This document shows positions 17,920-34,243 of a stretch of 35,124 bases of DNA, piece after piece. The DNA comes from a virus (taxonomy: Duplodnaviria; Heunggongvirae; Uroviricota; Caudoviricetes), in the IMG/VR virus record IMGVR_UViG_2690316269_000012. One strand, 5' to 3'. The notes below the pieces were generated by a model, which was not told the origin of the DNA, searched no databases, and worked only from the letters and a program-made list of their open reading frames with translations. Made by a program: the position numbers and the translations under genes. The stretch's first letter is position 1; every line of letters starts with the position of its first letter.

Positions 17920-18061
17920 CCAACCCACATGGGGAAACCTCGGAATATGGGGCGACCGCCTTCTGGATGCACTGGAAACCTGTAACGCGGATAAACGGGC
18001 CATTGCTGAACTGGATAAGAGAATAGCCGAACTGACACACCAGACGGGAGTAACACAATGA
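17780..18061 (+). CDS. lysC: o-spanin lipoprotein (Rz1/LysC-like)
   Basis: Starts inside lysB in another frame; lipobox LLTGC; proline-rich. Confidence 0.6.
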   Translation: MNAPTLCLTLVLLTGCAGTQNAPRPAPSVRLIPQTLTMPVTPPPFPDQPTWGNLGIWGDRLLDALETCNADKRAIAELDKRIAELTHQTGVTQ

Positions 18062-18918
18062 CCAGTAAGAACTTTGCACTGATTACAGCCATGACACAGG
18101 CTGAACTGACTCAAAAGGTGAATGAACATCTTGCGAAAGGGTGGCATCTTCAGGGGGAGACGCGGGTTGCCTACGAACCCGGCACCCCGTGGTATCTAAT
18201 GCAGGCAATGGTGGCCGATGGCACTACAGACATCTCACCTGATTCCCCCCAGCACGGCAGCGTGCCGGAGTGGTATTACGTGGTGGTACTTGCTGGTCAA
18301 TCCAATGCCATGTCATATGGTGAGGGAATGCCGCTGCCGGATTCTTACGATGCGCCCCACCCACGCATTAAGCAACTGGCCCGTCGCAACACAGTGACTC
18401 CCGGTGGTAAAGCATGCGCATTTAACGACATCATTCCGGCAGATCACTGCCTGCATGATGTTCAGGATATGAGCGCACTGAATCACCCGAATGCAGACCT
18501 GAGCAAAGGGCAGTATGGCTGTGTCGGACAGGGCTTGCATATTGCCAAACGCCTGTTGCCTTACATTCCACAGAATGCCGGGATTTTACTGGTTCCATGC
18601 TGTCGTGGTGGTTCGGCATTCACCCAGACCACAGACGGCAAACTGAATCTGATGCATCACAAGAAAGCAGGAAACACAAAGTTGGGCGAGTTCGGGAATT
18701 ACAGTAACGACTGGCAGACGCTGGAGCTGGTGTTCACCGCCAGCAGTGCCACGGTTACTCCGAAACTGAATGGAGTGGCTGGCCCGGCATTCCAGGTCAT
18801 AAAAGACAGTCTGACACTGGGGCTGAATGCACTGACGCTGACGGATATTACCAAAAATGCAACGTATGGCGTTGAGATAGAAAGTCTGGTGCTGGAAATA
18901 AATAGTCCTGCAGCGTAA
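18058..18918 (+). CDS. DUF1737-like N-terminus plus SASA/SGNH-type esterase-like domain (NanS-p-like cargo)
   Basis: 286 aa; GQSN motif (VVLAGQSNAMSYGEG) as in sialate O-acetylesterase-type esterases; ATGA overlap with lysC; absent from canonical P2 lysis-R junction. Confidence 0.6.
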   Translation: MTSKNFALITAMTQAELTQKVNEHLAKGWHLQGETRVAYEPGTPWYLMQAMVADGTTDISPDSPQHGSVPEWYYVVVLAGQSNAMSYGEGMPLPDSYDAPHPRIKQLARRNTVTPGGKACAFNDIIPADHCLHDVQDMSALNHPNADLSKGQYGCVGQGLHIAKRLLPYIPQNAGILLVPCCRGGSAFTQTTDGKLNLMHHKKAGNTKLGEFGNYSNDWQTLELVFTASSATVTPKLNGVAGPAFQVIKDSLTLGLNALTLTDITKNATYGVEIESLVLEINSPAA

Positions 18919-22387: not shown

Positions 22388-24520
22388 ATGAGTACCACAA
22401 CACGAAAATTTAAAACCGTTATCACCGATACAGGTGCAAAAAAATTAGCTCAGGCAGCCGCGCCAGATGGTAAGCCTGTCCGCCTGACTCATATGGCCGT
22501 GGGCGACGGTGGCGGCGCGTTGCCCACACCAGACAGTAAGCAGACCCGTCTGGTGCATGAGGTGTGGCGACACACTGTTAATCGCGTCATCCTGGACGCA
22601 ACACATCAGAACCGCATTATTGCGGAGCTGGTTATTCCTCCAGAAACGGGCGGATTCTGGATCCGGGAAATTGGTGTGTTTGATGAGCACGGCGATTTAA
22701 TCGCGGTGGGCAATACTGCCGAAAGTTACAAGCCAGCCGTTGCCGAAGGGTCCGGACGTGCACAAACATTTCGCACCATTCTGACCGTATCCAGCACTGC
22801 CACTGTGGCGCTTACCGTGGATAACACCATGGTGATGGCCACAGTGGATTACGTGGATAACAAACTGAAAGAGCATGAACAGTCACGATGTCACCCGGAT
22901 GCCTCGCTGACCGCAAAAGGCTTTGTTCAACTCAGTAGCGCCACTAACAGCGATTCTGAAACGCTGGCTGCAACGCCGAAAGCGGTTAAGGTCGCGTATG
23001 ATCTTGCTAACGGAAAATATACAGCGCAGGATGCCACAACAGCGCGAAAAGGCCTTGTCCAGCTTAGTAGTGCAACCAACAGTACATCTGAAACGCTGGC
23101 GGCAACATCAAATGCAGTAAAAGCTGCCTATGACAATGCTGAAAAACGTCTGCAGAAAGCTAAGAATGGTGAGGATATCTCTGATAAAGACACCTTTACG
23201 AAAAATATCGGTGCCTGCCGTGCATATAGTGCAGAGCTGAATATTGGTGGAGATAGTGAAGCATGGACAACTGCGCAGTTGATTTTTTGGCTAGAGAGTC
23301 AGGGGGCATTTAACCATCCTTACTGGATGTGCAAAGGCTCATGGGCTTATGCAAATAATAAGGTCATTACAGATACAGGTTGCGGAAGTATTTGTCTTGC
23401 AGGTGCTGTTGTGGAAGTTATTGGCACCCGCGGCGCAATGACCATACGCATTACCACACCGAGTACATCCAGCGGTGAAGGCATCCCTAATGCTCAATTT
23501 ACTTATATTAATCATGGTGATGCTTATGCTCCTGGCTGGCGAAGGGACTATAACTCCAGGAATAAGCCAACAGCATCAGAGATCGGGGCGTTACCGTCAG
23601 ATGGGACAGCAGTATCGTCAGTTAATCTGGCTTCAAAAGGTCGGCTGACCGCTCTGACAGATAATATGCAGGGGGCCACAGGTCTGGAGTTATACGAGGC
23701 GTATAACAACGGATATCCAACAACGTATGGAAATATCATTCACCTGAAAGGGATGACAGCCGTTGGCGAAGGCGAATTACTCATCGGCTGGAGTGGTATA
23801 AGCGGTGCTCATGCTCCGGCATTTATTCGTTCACGACGGGATACGACCGACGCAAACTGGTCGCCGTGGGCGCAGCTTTACACCTCGGCTCATCCTCCTG
23901 AAGAGTTTTATCCAGTCGGTGCACCGATTCCGTGGCCATCAGATACCGTTCCGTCTGGTTATGCCCTGATGCAGGGGCAGACTTTTGACAAATCTGCATA
24001 CCCGAAACTTGCAGTCGCTTATCCGTCAGGCGTTATTCCTGATATGCGTGGCTGGACGATTAAGGGCAAGCCCGGCAGTGGTCGTGCCGTATTGTCTCAG
24101 GAACAGGACGGCATTAAATCGCACACCCACAGCGCCAGCGCATCCAGTACGGATTTGGGGACGAAAACCACATCGTCGTTTGATTACGGTACTAAAACGA
24201 CCAGTTCATTTGATTACGGCACAAAAACTACGAATAGCGCTGGAAATCATTCACACAATATACCTGTTGGTCACACTGGCGCGGGGAATGGTGTATCAGC
24301 CGGTTATAACGCTGCGTTAGGTACTGGTACCACGTCGAGCGCAGGCGAGCATGCTCACAATGTATATATCGGTGCCCATAACCACACTATCGGCATTGGT
24401 GCTCATGCCCATTCTGTCATTATTGGTCCCCACGGACACACCATCACCGTTAACGCTACGGGTAACGAAGAAAACACCGTAAAAAACATCGCATTTAACT
24501 ATATTGTGAGGCTTGCATAA
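22388..24520 (+). CDS. H: tail fibre protein H
   Basis: 710 aa; repeated [16 protein letters not shown] motifs and C-terminal His-rich repeats typical of tail-fibre tips. Confidence 0.88.
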
Positions 24521-25098
24521 TGACATTCAGAATGAGTGAACACTCACGGACCATAAAAATTTATAATCTACTGACCGGAACCAATGAGTTTATTGGTGAA
24601 GGTGATGCATACATTCCACCTCATACAGGTCTGCCTGCAAACAGTACCGATATTGCCCCGCCAGATATTCCGGCTGGCTTCGTGGCCGTTTTCAACAGTG
24701 ATGAGGCATCGTGGCATCTCGTTGAAGACCATCGGGGTAAAACGGTTTATGACGTGGCATCAGGGGACTCGTTATTTATTTCTGAACTCGGTCCATTACC
24801 GGAAAATGTTACCTGGTTGTCGCCGTATGGAGAGTATCAGAAGTGGAACGGCACATCCTGGGTGAAAGATGCAGAAGCAGAAAAACTGTTTCGGATAAGG
24901 GAGGCGGAAGAAACAAAAAACAGCCTGATGCAGGTAGCCAGCGAGCATATTGCGCCACTTCAGGATGCCGTAGATTTGGATATTGCAACGGAGGAAGAGG
25001 CATCGTTACTGGCTGCATGGAAGACATACCGGGTATTGTTGAATCGTGTTAATACAGCGGTAGCAGCGGATGTTGAGTGGCCAGTCGCCCCACAATAA
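24520..25098 (+). CDS. G: tail fibre assembly chaperone G
   Basis: 192 aa; ATGA overlap with H; position. Confidence 0.8.
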
Positions 25099-25104
25099 AG
25101 AGAA

Positions 25105-25134
25105 AAAGCCATCGATTGAAATATAGATGGCTTT
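25105..25134. terminator. bidirectional hairpin terminator between convergent G and acetyltransferase
   Basis: 9-bp stem AAAGCCATC/GATGGCTTT; T-run follows on the minus strand (TTTTTCTCT). Confidence 0.5.
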
Positions 25135-25141
25135 ATGTACT

Positions 25142-25747
25142 CTATTTATACAATACAACACCGCTCTTTTTAGTTATATATGTGCAGTTCGATGGTATAT
25201 CTTTATTTATAAAAGACATTGCACCTATTTTTACATTATCCCCAATTTTACGTGATAATCCAATGATGCAACAATTAGCTCCGATATCAACGTTACTACC
25301 AATTTTTACTCTTGAACCAGGCATGTCACCATCTATCTGTCCAATGGTAGTATTCTGTCGTAACACCAGATTTTCACCAGCATCAACAGCAAAATGAACA
25401 ACAATTCCAGCATGATGGGGAATTGTTAACCCTTTTCCAATATTTGCGCCCAATCCAATTTCACAACCAAATTTGTTAATTATTTTACTGTTTAACTTTT
25501 TGGCTGCTTTCTTATGTAATTTATTACCATTAATATACATTTCGTTAGCCAACCGCCACCAGAAAAGGAAATTCCGGTTACGCTGTTTTTTCTCTCTTAA
25601 AAGCCTCCAGATATCCATACGTTTCCGCCGAATTACTTCATATTTCCAGAAGTTTTTTAAATTAGTAGAGTCCCCAAATAAAACAAAGTGAATTGCCATT
25701 AAGTAAGACAGCACGATAATCTCCTTAATTATTATTTCAGACCACAC
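25142..25747 (-). CDS. hexapeptide-repeat (left-handed beta-helix) O-acetyltransferase, CysE/WcaB-like (cargo)
   Basis: 201 aa; tandem hexapeptide repeats (IGANIGKGLTI, IGSNVDIGANCCIIG, IGDNVKIGAMSFI); strongly AT-rich island 25100..25860. Confidence 0.75.
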   Translation of the reverse strand: MWSEIIIKEIIVLSYLMAIHFVLFGDSTNLKNFWKYEVIRRKRMDIWRLLREKKQRNRNFLFWWRLANEMYINGNKLHKKAAKKLNSKIINKFGCEIGLGANIGKGLTIPHHAGIVVHFAVDAGENLVLRQNTTIGQIDGDMPGSRVKIGSNVDIGANCCIIGLSRKIGDNVKIGAMSFINKDIPSNCTYITKKSGVVLYK

Positions 25748-25870
25748 ATATTATAAGGTTAAGAGATTATAAAATCCTGTTGTTTGTTATTCAAAAACAA
25801 TTTTCTGAGAAGGACATACAACAGCAAGTCGCCAGTCACCTTCATCAGGAAATTGGCGACATACGTTAAA

Positions 25871-26365
25871 TCAGAGCAGCCCCTTAACTGAGCTGGTCGC
25901 GCTATTAAGGGATGATGTCACCTTATCTTTGAAGCCGGACAACATATCGCTGAACGATGAGGATTGCAGGCGCTCCCGCAAATCCTCATCACAGCGTTCA
26001 AGAGTCAGTGAAAATTCTATCTTTTTCGCCTTACCGTAGCGATCAAACTCGGAGCGGGTCGTATTCGTTTCGGTCAGGACATACATGCCGTAAATCTGCC
26101 CGACGCCATCAATCAGAGGCCAGGGCCGTCCTGTATACGCCTGCGTGGTCAGCAGAGACAGCGACACTTCGCCACCTGTAATTTCAGGATAAAGCACACC
26201 AGAAAGAACGATGCGATCATCACCTGCACCGATATACTGCCAGCTTGCTGAACGGTTAACGCGTTCATTTTTCACATGCCGCCAGCTTTTGTTTTGCTGT
26301 AACTGCTGATGCGGCAGCGTGCGCAGCTCAAAAACAAACATGCCATAGATCATCATCATGGCCAT
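25871..26365 (-). CDS. U: tail protein U
   Basis: 164 aa; MIYGMFVF...LYPEITGG...WPLIDGVGQIYGMYV resembles P2 U. Confidence 0.88.
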   Translation of the reverse strand: MAMMMIYGMFVFELRTLPHQQLQQNKSWRHVKNERVNRSASWQYIGAGDDRIVLSGVLYPEITGGEVSLSLLTTQAYTGRPWPLIDGVGQIYGMYVLTETNTTRSEFDRYGKAKKIEFSLTLERCDEDLRERLQSSSFSDMLSGFKDKVTSSLNSATSSVKGLL

Positions 26366-26371
26366 GACTCC

Positions 26372-29215
26372 TCAATCTTTATCGTAAAAACTGCCACGCC
26401 CGGCACGGGCGCGCCGTTCCATTTCTGCCCTGACCATTTCACCGACCAGTTTCGCCAGTTCGCGGGGATTCTGCGTAACAACGTTATGCAGATGAACATG
26501 AATTTCACCGCCAAATCTGGAGACAGCAGGCTCCCGATTACGGGAAGCTGCAGGAACTGATGCCACTGGCGATCGTATGGCCTCCGCCACCGGGCGGGAG
26601 CTGGCCGCAACAACAGGGACCAGCGCCGGAGGCAGCGGAGCCGGGACTACGGGTGTGATATTAATTGCGGGGGCAGGCTTACTGACCTGCGCAATCTTCC
26701 GCTCCTGCCACTCCCCACGAACAGCAAGTGCGCGGGGCAGGTTCTTAAAGACAATATCGCCAGGGCCAATGCGTTTTTTCGTCTCATCAACCAGCTTACC
26801 TGTGTTATCAGCAATTTTGCTGAGTCTGCGTAGCGTCCCGGTATTGCTGTCTGTGAGCGGTTTGTTGTCTTTGGGTTTATCACCTCCGGTGCCATTGCCA
26901 TTTTCCACAGGCTTCGGCGGATTGATTTTCGCCAGGTCCCCCTGAAGTAAGGCAACCTTATCCTGAAGAATGGCCGCACGCTGTGCGTCTTCGATTTTCT
27001 TGCGCGCCCTTTCCGCTTCATCCGGAAGGACGCCAAGTTTTTCAAGTATCCACGCCAGCGTATCCAGTAGCATTTTTGCAGGTGTCAGAACAAGTTGTAA
27101 CGCACCGCCAAGAACGTTACCGAATATCTCGCCAGCACTGGTACATTTATCCAGCGTTTCCTTGCTGGACTCCATCGGTGACAGCAGCGATTTAAACCAG
27201 TTAAACACCTGGCTGATCCCGCTTCCGATTGCGTCAAAAACAGGGCCAAACCGTTCAAAGGTTTCACGCAACGGGTTCAGCCTTTCCATAATCCCGCTGA
27301 ACACCCCGGCAAAAAATGCCCTGATGGGATCCCAGTATTTCCAGATAAGGACGGCAGCTCCGGCAAGCGCAGCCACGATAAGACCAACCGGACTGAACAG
27401 CGCCCCGATAGCGCCTCCCAGTAAAGAAACGGAACCCGTCACCATTCCCCATAGTGCTGGCAGGACCCTGACAGCATTCATTGATCCGGTCAGGAGAGAA
27501 AAACCAAGACGCAGTTTTGCCAGCGGACCAGCAAGCACACCAATAGCCAGCGACAACGAGCCAACCGTTGCAGTCATTGCCAGCAACGCACCGCCTGCTA
27601 TCAGTAGCTGGCGCGTCAGTGCCGGATGGGCCTGCGCCAGCGCCGTCACCCTTGATACCACCCGCGTGAGCCACTGCGTGACAGAACGCAGCGGACCGTC
27701 AATCAGATCTGCAATGCGGATGCGCAACCCTTCCCATGCACTGCCGAGTGATTTCAGATCGCCGTCAAGGTTGTTGGCCATAACCTTTGCTGTGCGTTCA
27801 GCCTCACCGCGCGCGCCTTCAAGTTCTTTTCTCAGTTTGGGTAAGGAACCGTCACCCACTGCATCAACGAGCGCCATAAACGATGTGAAAGCCTCTTCTC
27901 CGGCAATGTCCTTAAAGAACGATACCCGGTCAACTTCCCCGTATTTGCGGGTGGCTTTATAAAGGTCGGCCAGCACATCCTCCATCGGGCGCATTTTACC
28001 CCCGGCATCCGAGACGGACACGCCCAGCTCTTTCAGAGCTTCTGCCGCCGCCTTTGGCGGTGATGCCAGACGAGCCAGGCTGGCACGCATTGCCGTCCCG
28101 GCATCACTCCCTCTGATGCCCATATTCGCCAGCACACCAGCCATCGCTGCGGCCTGCTCCAGCGATATTCCCAGCTTACCCGCCACCGGACCTGCATATT
28201 TCATGGTTTCGCCCAGTGCGCGAAGGTCAGTGTTGGTACGGGTAAACGCTGCGGTGAGTGTGTCACCGACCCGGTCCATCTGGTCAGCAGAAAGGCCGAA
28301 CTGCGTCAGGATATTTGAGCCAATATCTGCCGTCTCGCCGAGATCCATACCGCCAGCCGTTGCCATGCTCAGCACTCCGGGAAGCGCAGCCTGAATGGCC
28401 TGCGGTGTGAAGCCTGCCATTGCAAGAAATGCCTGCCCACTGGCGGCATCGCCTGCGGTGAACTGCGTTTCAGAGCCAAGTTTTAACGCCTGCTCACGCA
28501 GCGCCTTAAACTGCGGGCTGTTCTGGTCGATTCGCGTCAGCGCCTGAACGCGGGACATCTCTTTGCCGAACCCGATCGCGGGCTGCAAAAAACGCCCGGC
28601 AGCATAGCCGCCCGCCGCTGCCGCACCAATTGCCAGCGCACCACCTGTTTTCAGTTTTCCCGCGGTTTCCTGCGCGCGCGAATACCACTCACGCGCCCGC
28701 GTTACACGCGCAAGCGCCTGCCGTTCGCGTTCAAGCTGGTTGTTGTACTGTTCGGTGCGTCTGATGGCCTGCTGGATGGTGTTATCGCTGCCTGTCAGGG
28801 AAATGCCGTGGCGTTTCAGCTCTCCGCCAAGCTCCCGCATTTTCTGAATTTCCCGTGTGCGCGATTCATTCAGGCGTTCAAGCCGGGTGCTTAACTGCTG
28901 CATCAGCTTTTGTTGTTTTTCGCTGAGCACTGTACCCGTGCGTTGTAACTGATTAAGGGCGTTAAGCTGGCGTCGTGCTTTCACGATACCCGCATCCGCT
29001 TTACTGACAGCGTCGCGGGCGCGCTCAAATGAACGAGCCTGACGCTCGAGATTTTTAATCGCCCCCTGCGTTCGCTGGATGGAGTCACCAAACTGCCCCA
29101 TCAGGCGGCGGGCGTTTTCGGCAGGCCGGGTCAGCCTGTCAACGGCGCTGAAAGCGACCCGGATATCAAGAGTCTTCATTGTCTGCATTCCCGCTGCGAA
29201 GTGCCGCCCGCTCAC
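26372..29215 (-). CDS. T: tail tape measure protein T
   Basis: 947 aa; long, coiled-coil N-terminus and hydrophobic/Gly-Ala-rich central region; position. Confidence 0.9.
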   Translation of the reverse strand: MSGRHFAAGMQTMKTLDIRVAFSAVDRLTRPAENARRLMGQFGDSIQRTQGAIKNLERQARSFERARDAVSKADAGIVKARRQLNALNQLQRTGTVLSEKQQKLMQQLSTRLERLNESRTREIQKMRELGGELKRHGISLTGSDNTIQQAIRRTEQYNNQLERERQALARVTRAREWYSRAQETAGKLKTGGALAIGAAAAGGYAAGRFLQPAIGFGKEMSRVQALTRIDQNSPQFKALREQALKLGSETQFTAGDAASGQAFLAMAGFTPQAIQAALPGVLSMATAGGMDLGETADIGSNILTQFGLSADQMDRVGDTLTAAFTRTNTDLRALGETMKYAGPVAGKLGISLEQAAAMAGVLANMGIRGSDAGTAMRASLARLASPPKAAAEALKELGVSVSDAGGKMRPMEDVLADLYKATRKYGEVDRVSFFKDIAGEEAFTSFMALVDAVGDGSLPKLRKELEGARGEAERTAKVMANNLDGDLKSLGSAWEGLRIRIADLIDGPLRSVTQWLTRVVSRVTALAQAHPALTRQLLIAGGALLAMTATVGSLSLAIGVLAGPLAKLRLGFSLLTGSMNAVRVLPALWGMVTGSVSLLGGAIGALFSPVGLIVAALAGAAVLIWKYWDPIRAFFAGVFSGIMERLNPLRETFERFGPVFDAIGSGISQVFNWFKSLLSPMESSKETLDKCTSAGEIFGNVLGGALQLVLTPAKMLLDTLAWILEKLGVLPDEAERARKKIEDAQRAAILQDKVALLQGDLAKINPPKPVENGNGTGGDKPKDNKPLTDSNTGTLRRLSKIADNTGKLVDETKKRIGPGDIVFKNLPRALAVRGEWQERKIAQVSKPAPAINITPVVPAPLPPALVPVVAASSRPVAEAIRSPVASVPAASRNREPAVSRFGGEIHVHLHNVVTQNPRELAKLVGEMVRAEMERRARAGRGSFYDKD

Positions 29216-33103: not shown

Positions 33104-34243
33104 GTGGGAAACAATAAAGTGAAATTAGGAAGAAATGATAAGTGCTGGTGTAATTCAGGACTTAAGTATAAAAAGTGCCATCTTGGTCGAGATCGTGAAA
33201 CTCCGGTATCCAAAGCCGAGGCACTGAAATTTTCAAAGTCTCTCTCGCAGAGAAAGGCATGTTATGCGCCAGCATCCATGCACGAAGATTGTGATAAACG
33301 CATCGTTCAGGCGCATACGATATCTAAGAGCAGTAGCCTTAAGGCGATCGCCGACTCCAGCAATCACGTCATGGGGGTGATAATGAACTTAGCAAGCCTG
33401 ATGAGAAACAACGGAAAATGGCTTCCCGAGAAGATCGGTATCAATCAGGCATCCACTTTTACAGGATTTTGTGCAGTTCATGACAGAATCTTATTTTCAT
33501 GCCTAGAGAACGAAAAATTTACAGGCACGGACGAGCAGTGCTTTGCCTTAATGTTTCGTTCATTGTCTAAAGAAATTTATGCCAAAGAAGGGGGAGTGCT
33601 ATCTTCTGATTTTGCTAAAAATGCCGATAAAGGAAAGCTACAAGTTGAACAGTATTATATTCAGAAATTAATCGACCAGCACCAAAGTGGCTTAAATGCA
33701 GCAATAATTGAATTAAATAATCTTAAAACTAGCCTCGACCGCATCCTACTTAGCAGGCAATTTTCAGAAATTGAAAGTGTTATCTTCACTTTTGCAGAGC
33801 CTTTACCAATTGTAGTTTCGTCAATTCTTTCACCGGAGAGGGATTTCGATGGGACCAAAATTCAGGATTTGAGCGATCTTACAGTGTCGGCGGAACAAGT
33901 ATGTTTCAATGCTTTTTCCTGCGGAGGTAAGGGATATGTAGTGTTCAGTTGGCTGAGAACTTCAACAATTATCAGACGTTTTATACGGACACTAATTAAG
34001 ATCCCAGCTAACAGGATGTTCAATACCCTTCTGTATTTTTTCTTCACAAAGGCCGAAAATACATATTCATCCCCTGAGTGGTGGGACAGGCTCAGTGATA
34101 AACAGCGAGAGAATATCGGCAACATGATTATGTCAGGGGTTGAATTTTTTGGCATACCTACATCACAGGTTGATCATTCCGTTGATTATAACGCCGCTGC
34201 ACTTGAAGAGATAACATGCAGCAACAACGAAATTTGCAGCTGA
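33104..34243 (+). CDS. SEC-C-motif protein with uncharacterised C-terminal domain (cargo)
   Basis: 379 aa (GTG at 33104, or in-frame GTG at 33119); N-terminal LGRNDKCWCNSGLKYKKCH matches the SecA-type SEC-C zinc motif; remainder unrecognised; AT-rich island between D and ogr. Confidence 0.6.
   Translation: MGNNKVKLGRNDKCWCNSGLKYKKCHLGRDRETPVSKAEALKFSKSLSQRKACYAPASMHEDCDKRIVQAHTISKSSSLKAIADSSNHVMGVIMNLASLMRNNGKWLPEKIGINQASTFTGFCAVHDRILFSCLENEKFTGTDEQCFALMFRSLSKEIYAKEGGVLSSDFAKNADKGKLQVEQYYIQKLIDQHQSGLNAAIIELNNLKTSLDRILLSRQFSEIESVIFTFAEPLPIVVSSILSPERDFDGTKIQDLSDLTVSAEQVCFNAFSCGGKGYVVFSWLRTSTIIRRFIRTLIKIPANRMFNTLLYFFFTKAENTYSSPEWWDRLSDKQRENIGNMIMSGVEFFGIPTSQVDHSVDYNAAALEEITCSNNEICS

Follow-up and report, generated by a model that had tools for sequence, protein, structure and literature searches.

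Two prophage-encoded acyltransferases provide the nearest published parallels to the locus described here. NeaT, from a P2-like prophage of CFT073, is a membrane protein of the AT3 family and is encoded by an AT-rich gene that faces the tail genes at 'moron position 2' (PMC3573123), and NeuO of prophage CUS-3 is a soluble hexapeptide-repeat enzyme that O-acetylates polysialic acid, a surface glycan (PMC3046976). The present locus occupies positions 25,099-25,870 of a viral DNA stretch of 35,124 nucleotides (IMG/VR record IMGVR_UViG_2690316269_000012; the whole stretch is called the window below), which is a P2-like, P88-like (Xuanwuvirus) prophage of Shiga-toxigenic E. coli (STEC). It holds an acetyltransferase gene, placed directly after the tail-fibre assembly gene tfa, whose product is named serine O-acetyltransferase in NCBI/RefSeq. 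Comparison of its acceptor site with that of genuine serine acetyltransferases (SATs) indicates that this name is very probably wrong. Given the company that its relatives keep, it is suggested, at about even confidence, that the protein O-acetylates a sugar of the lipopolysaccharide (LPS) core in the cytoplasm, as a lysogenic conversion brought about by a tfa-linked moron.

On gene organisation, NeaT of CFT073 is the closest published analogue. Like neaT, the window gene is an AT-rich single-gene moron that closely follows the tail-fibre assembly gene and is read against the tail genes on its flanks, and both products are presumed to be surface-modifying acyltransferases. NeaT, Oac and GtrC (AT3, PF01757) are, however, polytopic membrane proteins that acylate outside the cytoplasm, whereas the window protein is a soluble left-handed beta-helix (LbH) protein and must therefore modify a precursor inside the cell. 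NeuO resembles the window protein in being a prophage-encoded soluble hexapeptide-repeat O-acetyltransferase, but the window gene lacks the 5' heptanucleotide repeats used for phase variation and its expected acceptor is a different one. No NeuO-named chain was present among the best 60 of the 74 PDB matches that the family profile gave at E <= 1e-5. Repeat-mediated phase variation was considered and ruled out, as no tandem repeats are present in 25,000-25,950. The neuO gene adjoins the receptor-binding (tailspike) gene of its phage.

The earlier note on this DNA had placed the gene at the P2 Z/fun locus. This assignment has to be given up: the FI-FII-E-T-U operon is inverted in the window, so that the acetyltransferase lies between tfa and gpU and its neighbour is not FI. 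P2 Z/fun, other cargo of 'moron position 2' and the window have in common a variable cargo site directly downstream of a tail-fibre assembly gene; in P2, however, the cargo lies between G and the sheath gene FI, whereas the neighbour in the window is gpU, and the genus usually carries a Cin/Gin-type invertible segment. The two loci are analogous only. In the sister phages P88, 503458 and Citrobacter phiSM (L183, L186 and L184) the gap between tfa and gpU is filled by a further tfa in the opposite orientation together with a Cin-like DNA invertase, forming an invertible host-range segment, to which the annotations of P88 and 503458 add an alternative fibre tip, while in PhiR44_2 (L185) the gap is a 253-bp spacer only. 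Set beside these phages, the window prophage has had the host-range switch replaced by a fixed lambda-Stf-type tip, tfa and the acetyltransferase.

Prophages with a 100% identical copy of the interval 25,099-25,870 are present in many Shiga-toxigenic E. coli chromosomes (e.g. E2865, O26 RM10386, O103 RM8385 and O111 RM9322), and the flanking tail genes are 97-98% identical to those of Xuanwuvirus phages (P88, P884B11 and 503458; Peduoviridae). The description of the gene as real, AT-rich and far below its neighbours in GC content holds, with values of 0.346 for the coding sequence and 0.341 for the cassette against 0.519 for the window, 0.478 for tfa and 0.505 for gpU. Its length was put at 201 aa, and an open reading frame (ORF) of that size does exist, the longest reading on the minus strand running from a GTG at 25,747 to the end at 25,142. 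The RefSeq call on the identical E2865 sequence (WP_000954196.1), however, begins at the GTG at 25,714 and gives 190 aa (window 25,142-25,714, minus strand), and an AAGGAG read from the sequence lies 6 nt upstream of that codon (ribosome-binding region 25,715-25,730, minus strand), both of which favour 190 aa as the more likely length.

Transcription signals are predicted on either side of the gene. A sigma-70-type promoter found by consensus match (TTGAAT-17 nt-TATAAT, 10 of 12 consensus positions) is located at 25,794-25,766 on the minus strand, and a strong hairpin at 25,810-25,862 on the same strand, directly after the gpU stop, probably ends the tail-operon transcript ahead of this promoter (the 76-nt fold of 25,800-25,875 has -23.9 kcal/mol and z = -4.1). 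At the other end, tfa and the acetyltransferase gene converge on a 43-nt gap, a length kept in nearly all close relatives, and share a hairpin within it at approximately 25,106-25,135, composed of a 9-bp stem and a 12-nt loop (-16.6 kcal/mol, z = -4.6), after which the minus strand reads UUUUUCUCUUUAUU, a U-run. This hairpin was found by folding, the consensus terminator scan having missed it because the loop is too long. Since the U-run is on the minus strand, the hairpin is the predicted terminator of the acetyltransferase gene, and it can possibly serve both convergent genes by terminating in both directions. Transcription opposite to the tail-fibre genes with a separate hairpin terminator, as had been proposed, is therefore confirmed for the strand and predicted for the hairpin. 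With its own predicted promoter and terminator, a deviant GC content and absence from the sister phages, the cassette reads as a self-contained moron consisting of a promoter, a Shine-Dalgarno site, one gene and a terminator.

The product belongs to the hexapeptide-repeat (LbH) acyltransferase superfamily, as indicated by Hexapep matches, a structural model and Foldseek. Its only Pfam matches are Hexapep (E = 3.8e-5) and Hexapep_2 (E = 3.3e-3), both just below the gathering score, and its NCBIfam matches all fall far below the cut-offs: EpsC NF041874 with 75.2 vs 150 bits, CysE TIGR01172 with 61.5 vs 210.65, two WcaB models with 54.2 vs 196 bits and 53.3 vs 194.65 bits, and NF008349 with 36.7 bits vs 397. 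The full-length match is to PHROG 2154, a phage family of unknown function (E = 1.7e-87, 292.7 bits, residues 24-201 of the 201-aa ORF). An AlphaFold (AF2) model built on 53 homologues (pLDDT 95.8) comprises five N-terminal helices followed by a left-handed beta-helix with regular short strands from residue 84, and the closest solved structures are SATs (TM 0.66-0.76 on the query at 17-28% identity; Foldseek probability 1.00 to the SAT LbH). The CysE/WcaB-like hexapeptide signature seen by the earlier note is upheld by the Hexapep matches, by the top NCBIfam ranks of CysE, EpsC and WcaB and by the beta-helix of the model. Residues conserved in the family include E26, E85 (the acidic partner) and H100 (the catalytic His), and the motifs W..EVIR, FLFWWRLANEMY and RQNTTIG are specific to the clade.

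No transmembrane or hydrophobic segment is present in the protein, the top Kyte-Doolittle 19-residue mean being 1.1, and the enzyme must therefore act in the cytoplasm; a membrane-bound enzyme is ruled out by the same value, and the AT3 family (PF01757) of polytopic membrane proteins is not matched. Maltose/galactoside acetyltransferase, NeuD/PglD, LpxA/LpxD, GlmU and DapD were also rejected, as they match a few C-terminal coils only, at 15-30 bits against cut-offs above 160. Compared with the WcaB/EpsC-type exopolysaccharide O-acetyltransferases, which are short, soluble, CysE-like, act on sugars in the cytoplasm and give the best NCBIfam matches, the window protein is no orthologue: it scores below the cut-offs, its gene lies in a prophage and outside wca/eps clusters, and it carries the clade-specific motifs. 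With CysE/SAT (PDB 6WYE/7RA4, 1T3D and 4N69) it shares the N-terminal helical bundle and LbH, the catalytic His/acid pair and acetyl-CoA as the presumed donor, but it lacks the Asp and the Arg-His that hold L-serine, and its contexts are phage and LPS genes instead of cysteine metabolism. The product is best explained as a soluble, presumably trimeric LbH O-acetyltransferase with the SAT fold and His/acid pair and a different acceptor pocket.

That difference in the pocket is what separates the protein from the SATs. In the N. gonorrhoeae enzyme, L-serine is bound by Asp96, Asp161, Arg196 and His197, and His162/Asp147 form the catalytic dyad (PMC8786284). In the family alignment the dyad is kept, with an acidic residue (E or D) at position 85 in all 53 sequences and His100 in 52 of them, and acetyl-transfer chemistry is probably retained. 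The position of the serine-binding Asp161 (N. gonorrhoeae) or Asp157 (E. coli) is instead P99 in the window protein and P, A, F, S, I, G, T or L across the family, never acidic, and the loop that carries the Arg-His pair is hypervariable in length and sequence, the RHP motif being absent. Among the matches listed by a scan of genome contigs, distant LbH proteins prevailed, the majority of which are true CysE by motif, and they served as a negative control and not as the family: DH and RHP occur together in at least 51 of these distant genomic homologues, whereas neither motif occurs in any of the prophage-derived loci of the acetyltransferase clade or in 16 further clade members checked one by one. 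In many of the DH/RHP homologues the next gene encodes about 460-520 aa, a size that would fit the cysE-cysS arrangement of Firmicutes. The window protein also gives no match to Pfam SATase_N and lacks the CysK-binding C-terminal tail motif. Its shortness is not an argument in either direction, since truncated CysE isoforms of similar length exist (PMC13040420), and the acceptor pocket is the argument. The PHROG 2154 clade is thus separate from the housekeeping SATs, and its members are found on mobile elements and in LPS-core clusters. The outcome that would have spoken against a surface role, namely that the closest homologues are housekeeping serine or maltose acetyltransferases, was not what was found.

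Copies of the gene were found in 530 of the 5426 complete E. coli genomes (575 records), which include O26, O103, O111 and other Shiga-toxigenic strains. Its junction with tfa (window 24,880-25,380) is found in every one of the 575 gene-bearing E. coli records, that is in all 530 genomes, whereas the junction with gpU is found in 495 genomes only; copies lacking the latter include non-mobilisable plasmids of approximately 90-105 kb. In the P1-like phage JL22 the gene, annotated 'sacF', lies between two convergent tfa genes and adjoins cin (PMC9603915), and at this position (L002, 3986-4558) it would sit inside the invertible C-segment and flip with it. Among 80 viral contigs, a Caudo_TAP gene is placed convergently 4-54 bp downstream at nearly every locus with enough flanking sequence, and sequence identity of the acetyltransferase rises and falls with that of tfa (Spearman 0.82 over 48 unique pairs, which are not independent). 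Members at 35-67% identity likewise converge on tfa or tail-fibre genes in Citrobacter phiNP, Hafnia yong2, a Buttiauxella tail cluster, a Mu-like Salmonella prophage, a P2-like Pseudocitrobacter prophage and prophages of Xenorhabdus and Morganella. In summary, the cassette travels with the tail-fibre-tip/tfa module between unrelated temperate myoviruses.

Exceptions to the tail-fibre site are a prophage end after hok in other E. coli, integrase-adjacent islands and an enteropathogenic E. coli (EPEC) EAF-type plasmid, where the gene lies next to the bfp region and the catalytic His is replaced by Arg. The plasmid copy (approximately 113-127-kb plasmids; L173-L175, 5001-5594), near bfp-like genes, is a paralogue of 50% identity, and given the exchange of His100 for Arg it is probably inactive or repurposed. 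In the P2-like Escherichia phage ESSI2_ev040 (L004, 2416-4471) an acetyltransferase of 44% identity is encoded downstream of the integrase gene and beside a gene of an abortive-infection family. The Pseudocitrobacter prophage region holds two hexapeptide acetyltransferase genes (L190, 1537-2097 and 6001-6552), of which the tfa-adjacent copy is followed by a co-directional 238-aa ORF, and the Salmonella copy is preceded by a 239-aa ORF (L187, 5261-5980); neither ORF gave a family match.

The indication of an acceptor comes from the neighbours of the relatives. The bacterial-genome scan listed 19 non-SAT relatives among its matches, and the 109 proteins encoded around these 19 are mainly glycosyltransferases (GT1/GT4 13 times and GT2 7 times), with Wzy_C found 5 times. 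Members at 39-50% identity to the window protein, though not the window gene itself, lie inside waa/core clusters. In Leminorella grimontii the order is GT4, WaaP, WaaB, LPS 3-alpha-galactosyltransferase, WaaY, WaaZ and then the acetyltransferase as the last gene of the core operon, facing a convergent WaaL; WaaP, WaaB, the galactosyltransferase, WaaY, WaaZ (TIGR04437) and WaaL all score above their curated cut-offs, and the GT4 has no specific model match. In a Pseudomonas metagenome-assembled genome (L091, 5992-6588) the gene is found among HldE, a PIG-L protein and MsbA (819 bits) on one side and a weak GT8, a Kdo/WaaP-family kinase and a weak Wzy_C on the other. In Ectopseudomonas mendocina (L188/L189, 6001-6570) it is accompanied by LPS kinases, a carbamoyltransferase and a GT2 that overlaps it by 4 bp, and on its other side by a gene of unknown family, a kinase-like gene and MsbA. 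The LPS core of Pseudomonas is known to be O-acetylated by enzymes that have not been identified (PMC8005017), and the members in the Pseudomonas and Ectopseudomonas core clusters would be candidates for this core O-acetyltransferase.

Prophage copies are also paired with genes of LPS type. These partners are a GT25 of the 'LPS biosynthesis' glycosyltransferase family in Xenorhabdus (123 bits; L177, 5001-6393), a GT9 heptosyltransferase-like protein in Morganella (32.6 bits; L179, 4867-7194) and HtrL/YibB in two Enterobacterales viral contigs (approximately 360 bits; including L071, 912-2445), and the Intestinirhabdus copy abuts the ugd/arn lipid-A-modification locus. Furthermore, one and the same E. 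coli allele is shared by O26, O103 and O111 strains, which fits a conserved acceptor. From these contexts, the most probable acceptor of the window enzyme would be the LPS core, or another conserved envelope glycan. The enzyme would use acetyl-CoA as donor for O-acetylation of a sugar in the LPS core oligosaccharide, and the lysogen would thereby carry an altered conserved surface structure. The probable benefit would be receptor masking, by which LPS-binding phages, the same one or its competitors, would adsorb less well; alternatively, the interaction with the animal host might be altered. The proposal of surface-glycan modification made in the earlier note thus survives in part, a glycan-modifying lysogenic conversion being the best reading, whereas its O-antigen or capsule form is the less likely one, given the identical allele in O26, O103 and O111 strains and the relatives in core clusters.

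Several points weigh against the LPS core as acceptor. The link is one of guilt by association, drawn through relatives that are 39-50% identical, and acceptor specificity in the superfamily can change at that distance; we infer not only the acceptor but also expression in the lysogen and the phenotype. The contexts in Erwinia, Orbus and Pantoea and on the EPEC EAF-type plasmid are uninformative. To our knowledge, O-acetyl groups have not been described for the E. coli R1-R4 and K-12 cores. The lambda-Stf-like tip of the tail fibre may bind a porin rather than LPS, and the gene could have come to lie next to tfa simply by hitch-hiking, the insertion site there being permissive. Finally, no experimental work on any family member was found in the literature, the only mentions met there being at the level of annotation, those of 'sacF' in JL22 (PMC9603915) and of ORF4 in phiNP (PMC6456863).

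It is possible that the acceptor is another envelope polysaccharide, such as an O-antigen unit, enterobacterial common antigen, colanic acid or capsule, acetylated on an undecaprenyl-linked or nucleotide-sugar precursor in a classical serotype conversion or receptor masking. The protein falls into the same LbH subfamily as WcaB and the EpsC-type exopolysaccharide acetyltransferases, the GT1/GT4, GT2 and Wzy_C genes near the listed relatives are held by O-antigen and exopolysaccharide clusters too, and the phage precedents NeuO (PMC3046976) and NeaT, which lies at the P2 G|FI site (PMC3573123), are of this kind. However, this is unlikely, though it deserves serious weight: O26, O103 and O111 have unrelated O-units and yet share one allele, the informative chromosomal relatives lie in core clusters and not in O-antigen clusters, the prophage partners are of LPS-core types (GT9, GT25 and HtrL), and the WcaB score is 54 against a cut-off of 196 bits. 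A target that is no glycan at all, be it a small molecule or antibiotic as for xenobiotic acetyltransferases, a host or phage protein, or a role in anti-phage defence or counter-defence away from the cell surface, would agree with the frequency of defence cargo at post-tail-fibre and prophage-end sites, with the toxin-antitoxin and abortive-infection genes beside some relatives (hicAB, an abortive-infection family protein and hok) and with the hypervariable loop of the acceptor pocket. Such a target is nevertheless improbable, as the PADLOC scan for known defence proteins gave no match, the CatB and Vat-type NCBIfam models are unmatched, and the pairing with glycosyltransferases and LPS operons recurs.

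The two remaining explanations are more doubtful still. If the protein were a genuine short-isoform serine O-acetyltransferase, the gene would be an auxiliary metabolic gene that raises the supply of O-acetylserine and cysteine, and this would account for the SATs as best matches among solved structures in both sequence and fold, for the NCBI name, for the conserved dyad and for a length also seen in truncated CysE. It is rendered very improbable by the replacement of the serine-binding Asp throughout the family together with the missing Arg-His pair, by a TIGR01172 score far short of its cut-off, and by gene contexts that are tail-fibre genes and LPS clusters and never cys genes. Equally, the strict tfa linkage would be explained if the enzyme acetylated the phage's own tail fibre or helped to assemble it, given that in E. 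coli it is physically linked to one tfa allele in 100% of cases and that the two sequences co-diverge. This virion role is hardly credible, however: the gene is oriented against the late operon and has its own predicted sigma-70 promoter, sister phages have intact tails without it, and chromosomal homologues lie in LPS operons with no phage genes nearby.

Returning to acetylation of the LPS core, a broader and more tentative proposal, held at somewhat less than even confidence, is that the members of PHROG 2154 are LPS-core O-acetyltransferases of the cytoplasm, a family so far unrecognised. Those encoded on chromosomes would acetylate the Pseudomonas core, and temperate Enterobacterales phages would have captured the gene, alone or with GT9, GT25 or HtrL, onto exchangeable tip/tfa modules, so that receptor masking would be co-acquired with a new receptor specificity.

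The earlier note had further suggested that the phage both adds acetyl groups to one glycan receptor and removes them, on account of a putative esterase gene just after the lysis genes (18,058-18,918, plus strand). This is not sustained, because the esterase is internally deleted and the substrate of its family is sialic acid. The ORF encodes a NanS-p-like protein with DUF1737, a weak partial SASA match and DUF6645, the same domain order as in the NanS-p proteins of Stx phages, which are sialate O-acetylesterases (PMC10462455). It corresponds to residues 1-190 and 525-625 of a 625-aa protein encoded by the E2865 prophage, which is near-identical apart from this. Residues 191-524 (approximately 334) are deleted in frame, and most of the SASA catalytic domain with them; the GQSN block is kept, the QGE.D and R..H regions are lost, and the allele is probably inactive. 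A short 'FTQ' motif that is repeated (SAFTQ / SFFTQ) marks the deletion junction.

Ahead of the cassette on the plus strand are the tail fibre gene H (22,388-24,520), with a P2 H-like N-terminus and a C-terminal tip of the type common to P1-like phage JL22 and lambda Stf, and tfa (24,520-25,098; Caudo_TAP, lambda Tfa-like), which in E. coli accompanies the acetyltransferase gene without exception. The inverted tail operon lies beyond it on the minus strand, with gpU (25,871-26,365) as its last gene and the upstream neighbour of the moron, followed by the tape measure gene (26,372-29,215) and, beyond 29,215, E, FII and FI. Further prophage cargo consists of a YecA-family/SEC-C-motif protein between gpD and ogr (33,104-34,243, plus strand), a Hok/Gef toxin gene at the prophage end in the E2865 copy and ParM-like partition genes in the early region.

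Prophage glycan-modifying acetyltransferases are already known as a kind; the case described here brings with it a widespread mis-annotation and a connection to acetylation of the LPS core that can be tested. Roughly one complete E. coli genome in ten has the gene, as do P1-like phage-plasmids, and everywhere it bears a misleading metabolic name. If the LPS core is not acetylated, this is an ordinary prophage cargo gene. If it is, the gene would be a widespread, serogroup-independent lysogenic-conversion factor for phage susceptibility, of consequence where STEC are typed or treated with phages and perhaps also for recognition by innate immunity, and the family would supply a candidate for the Pseudomonas core O-acetyltransferases (PMC8005017). 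Receptor-binding and receptor-modifying functions would then be swapped between phages as one module.

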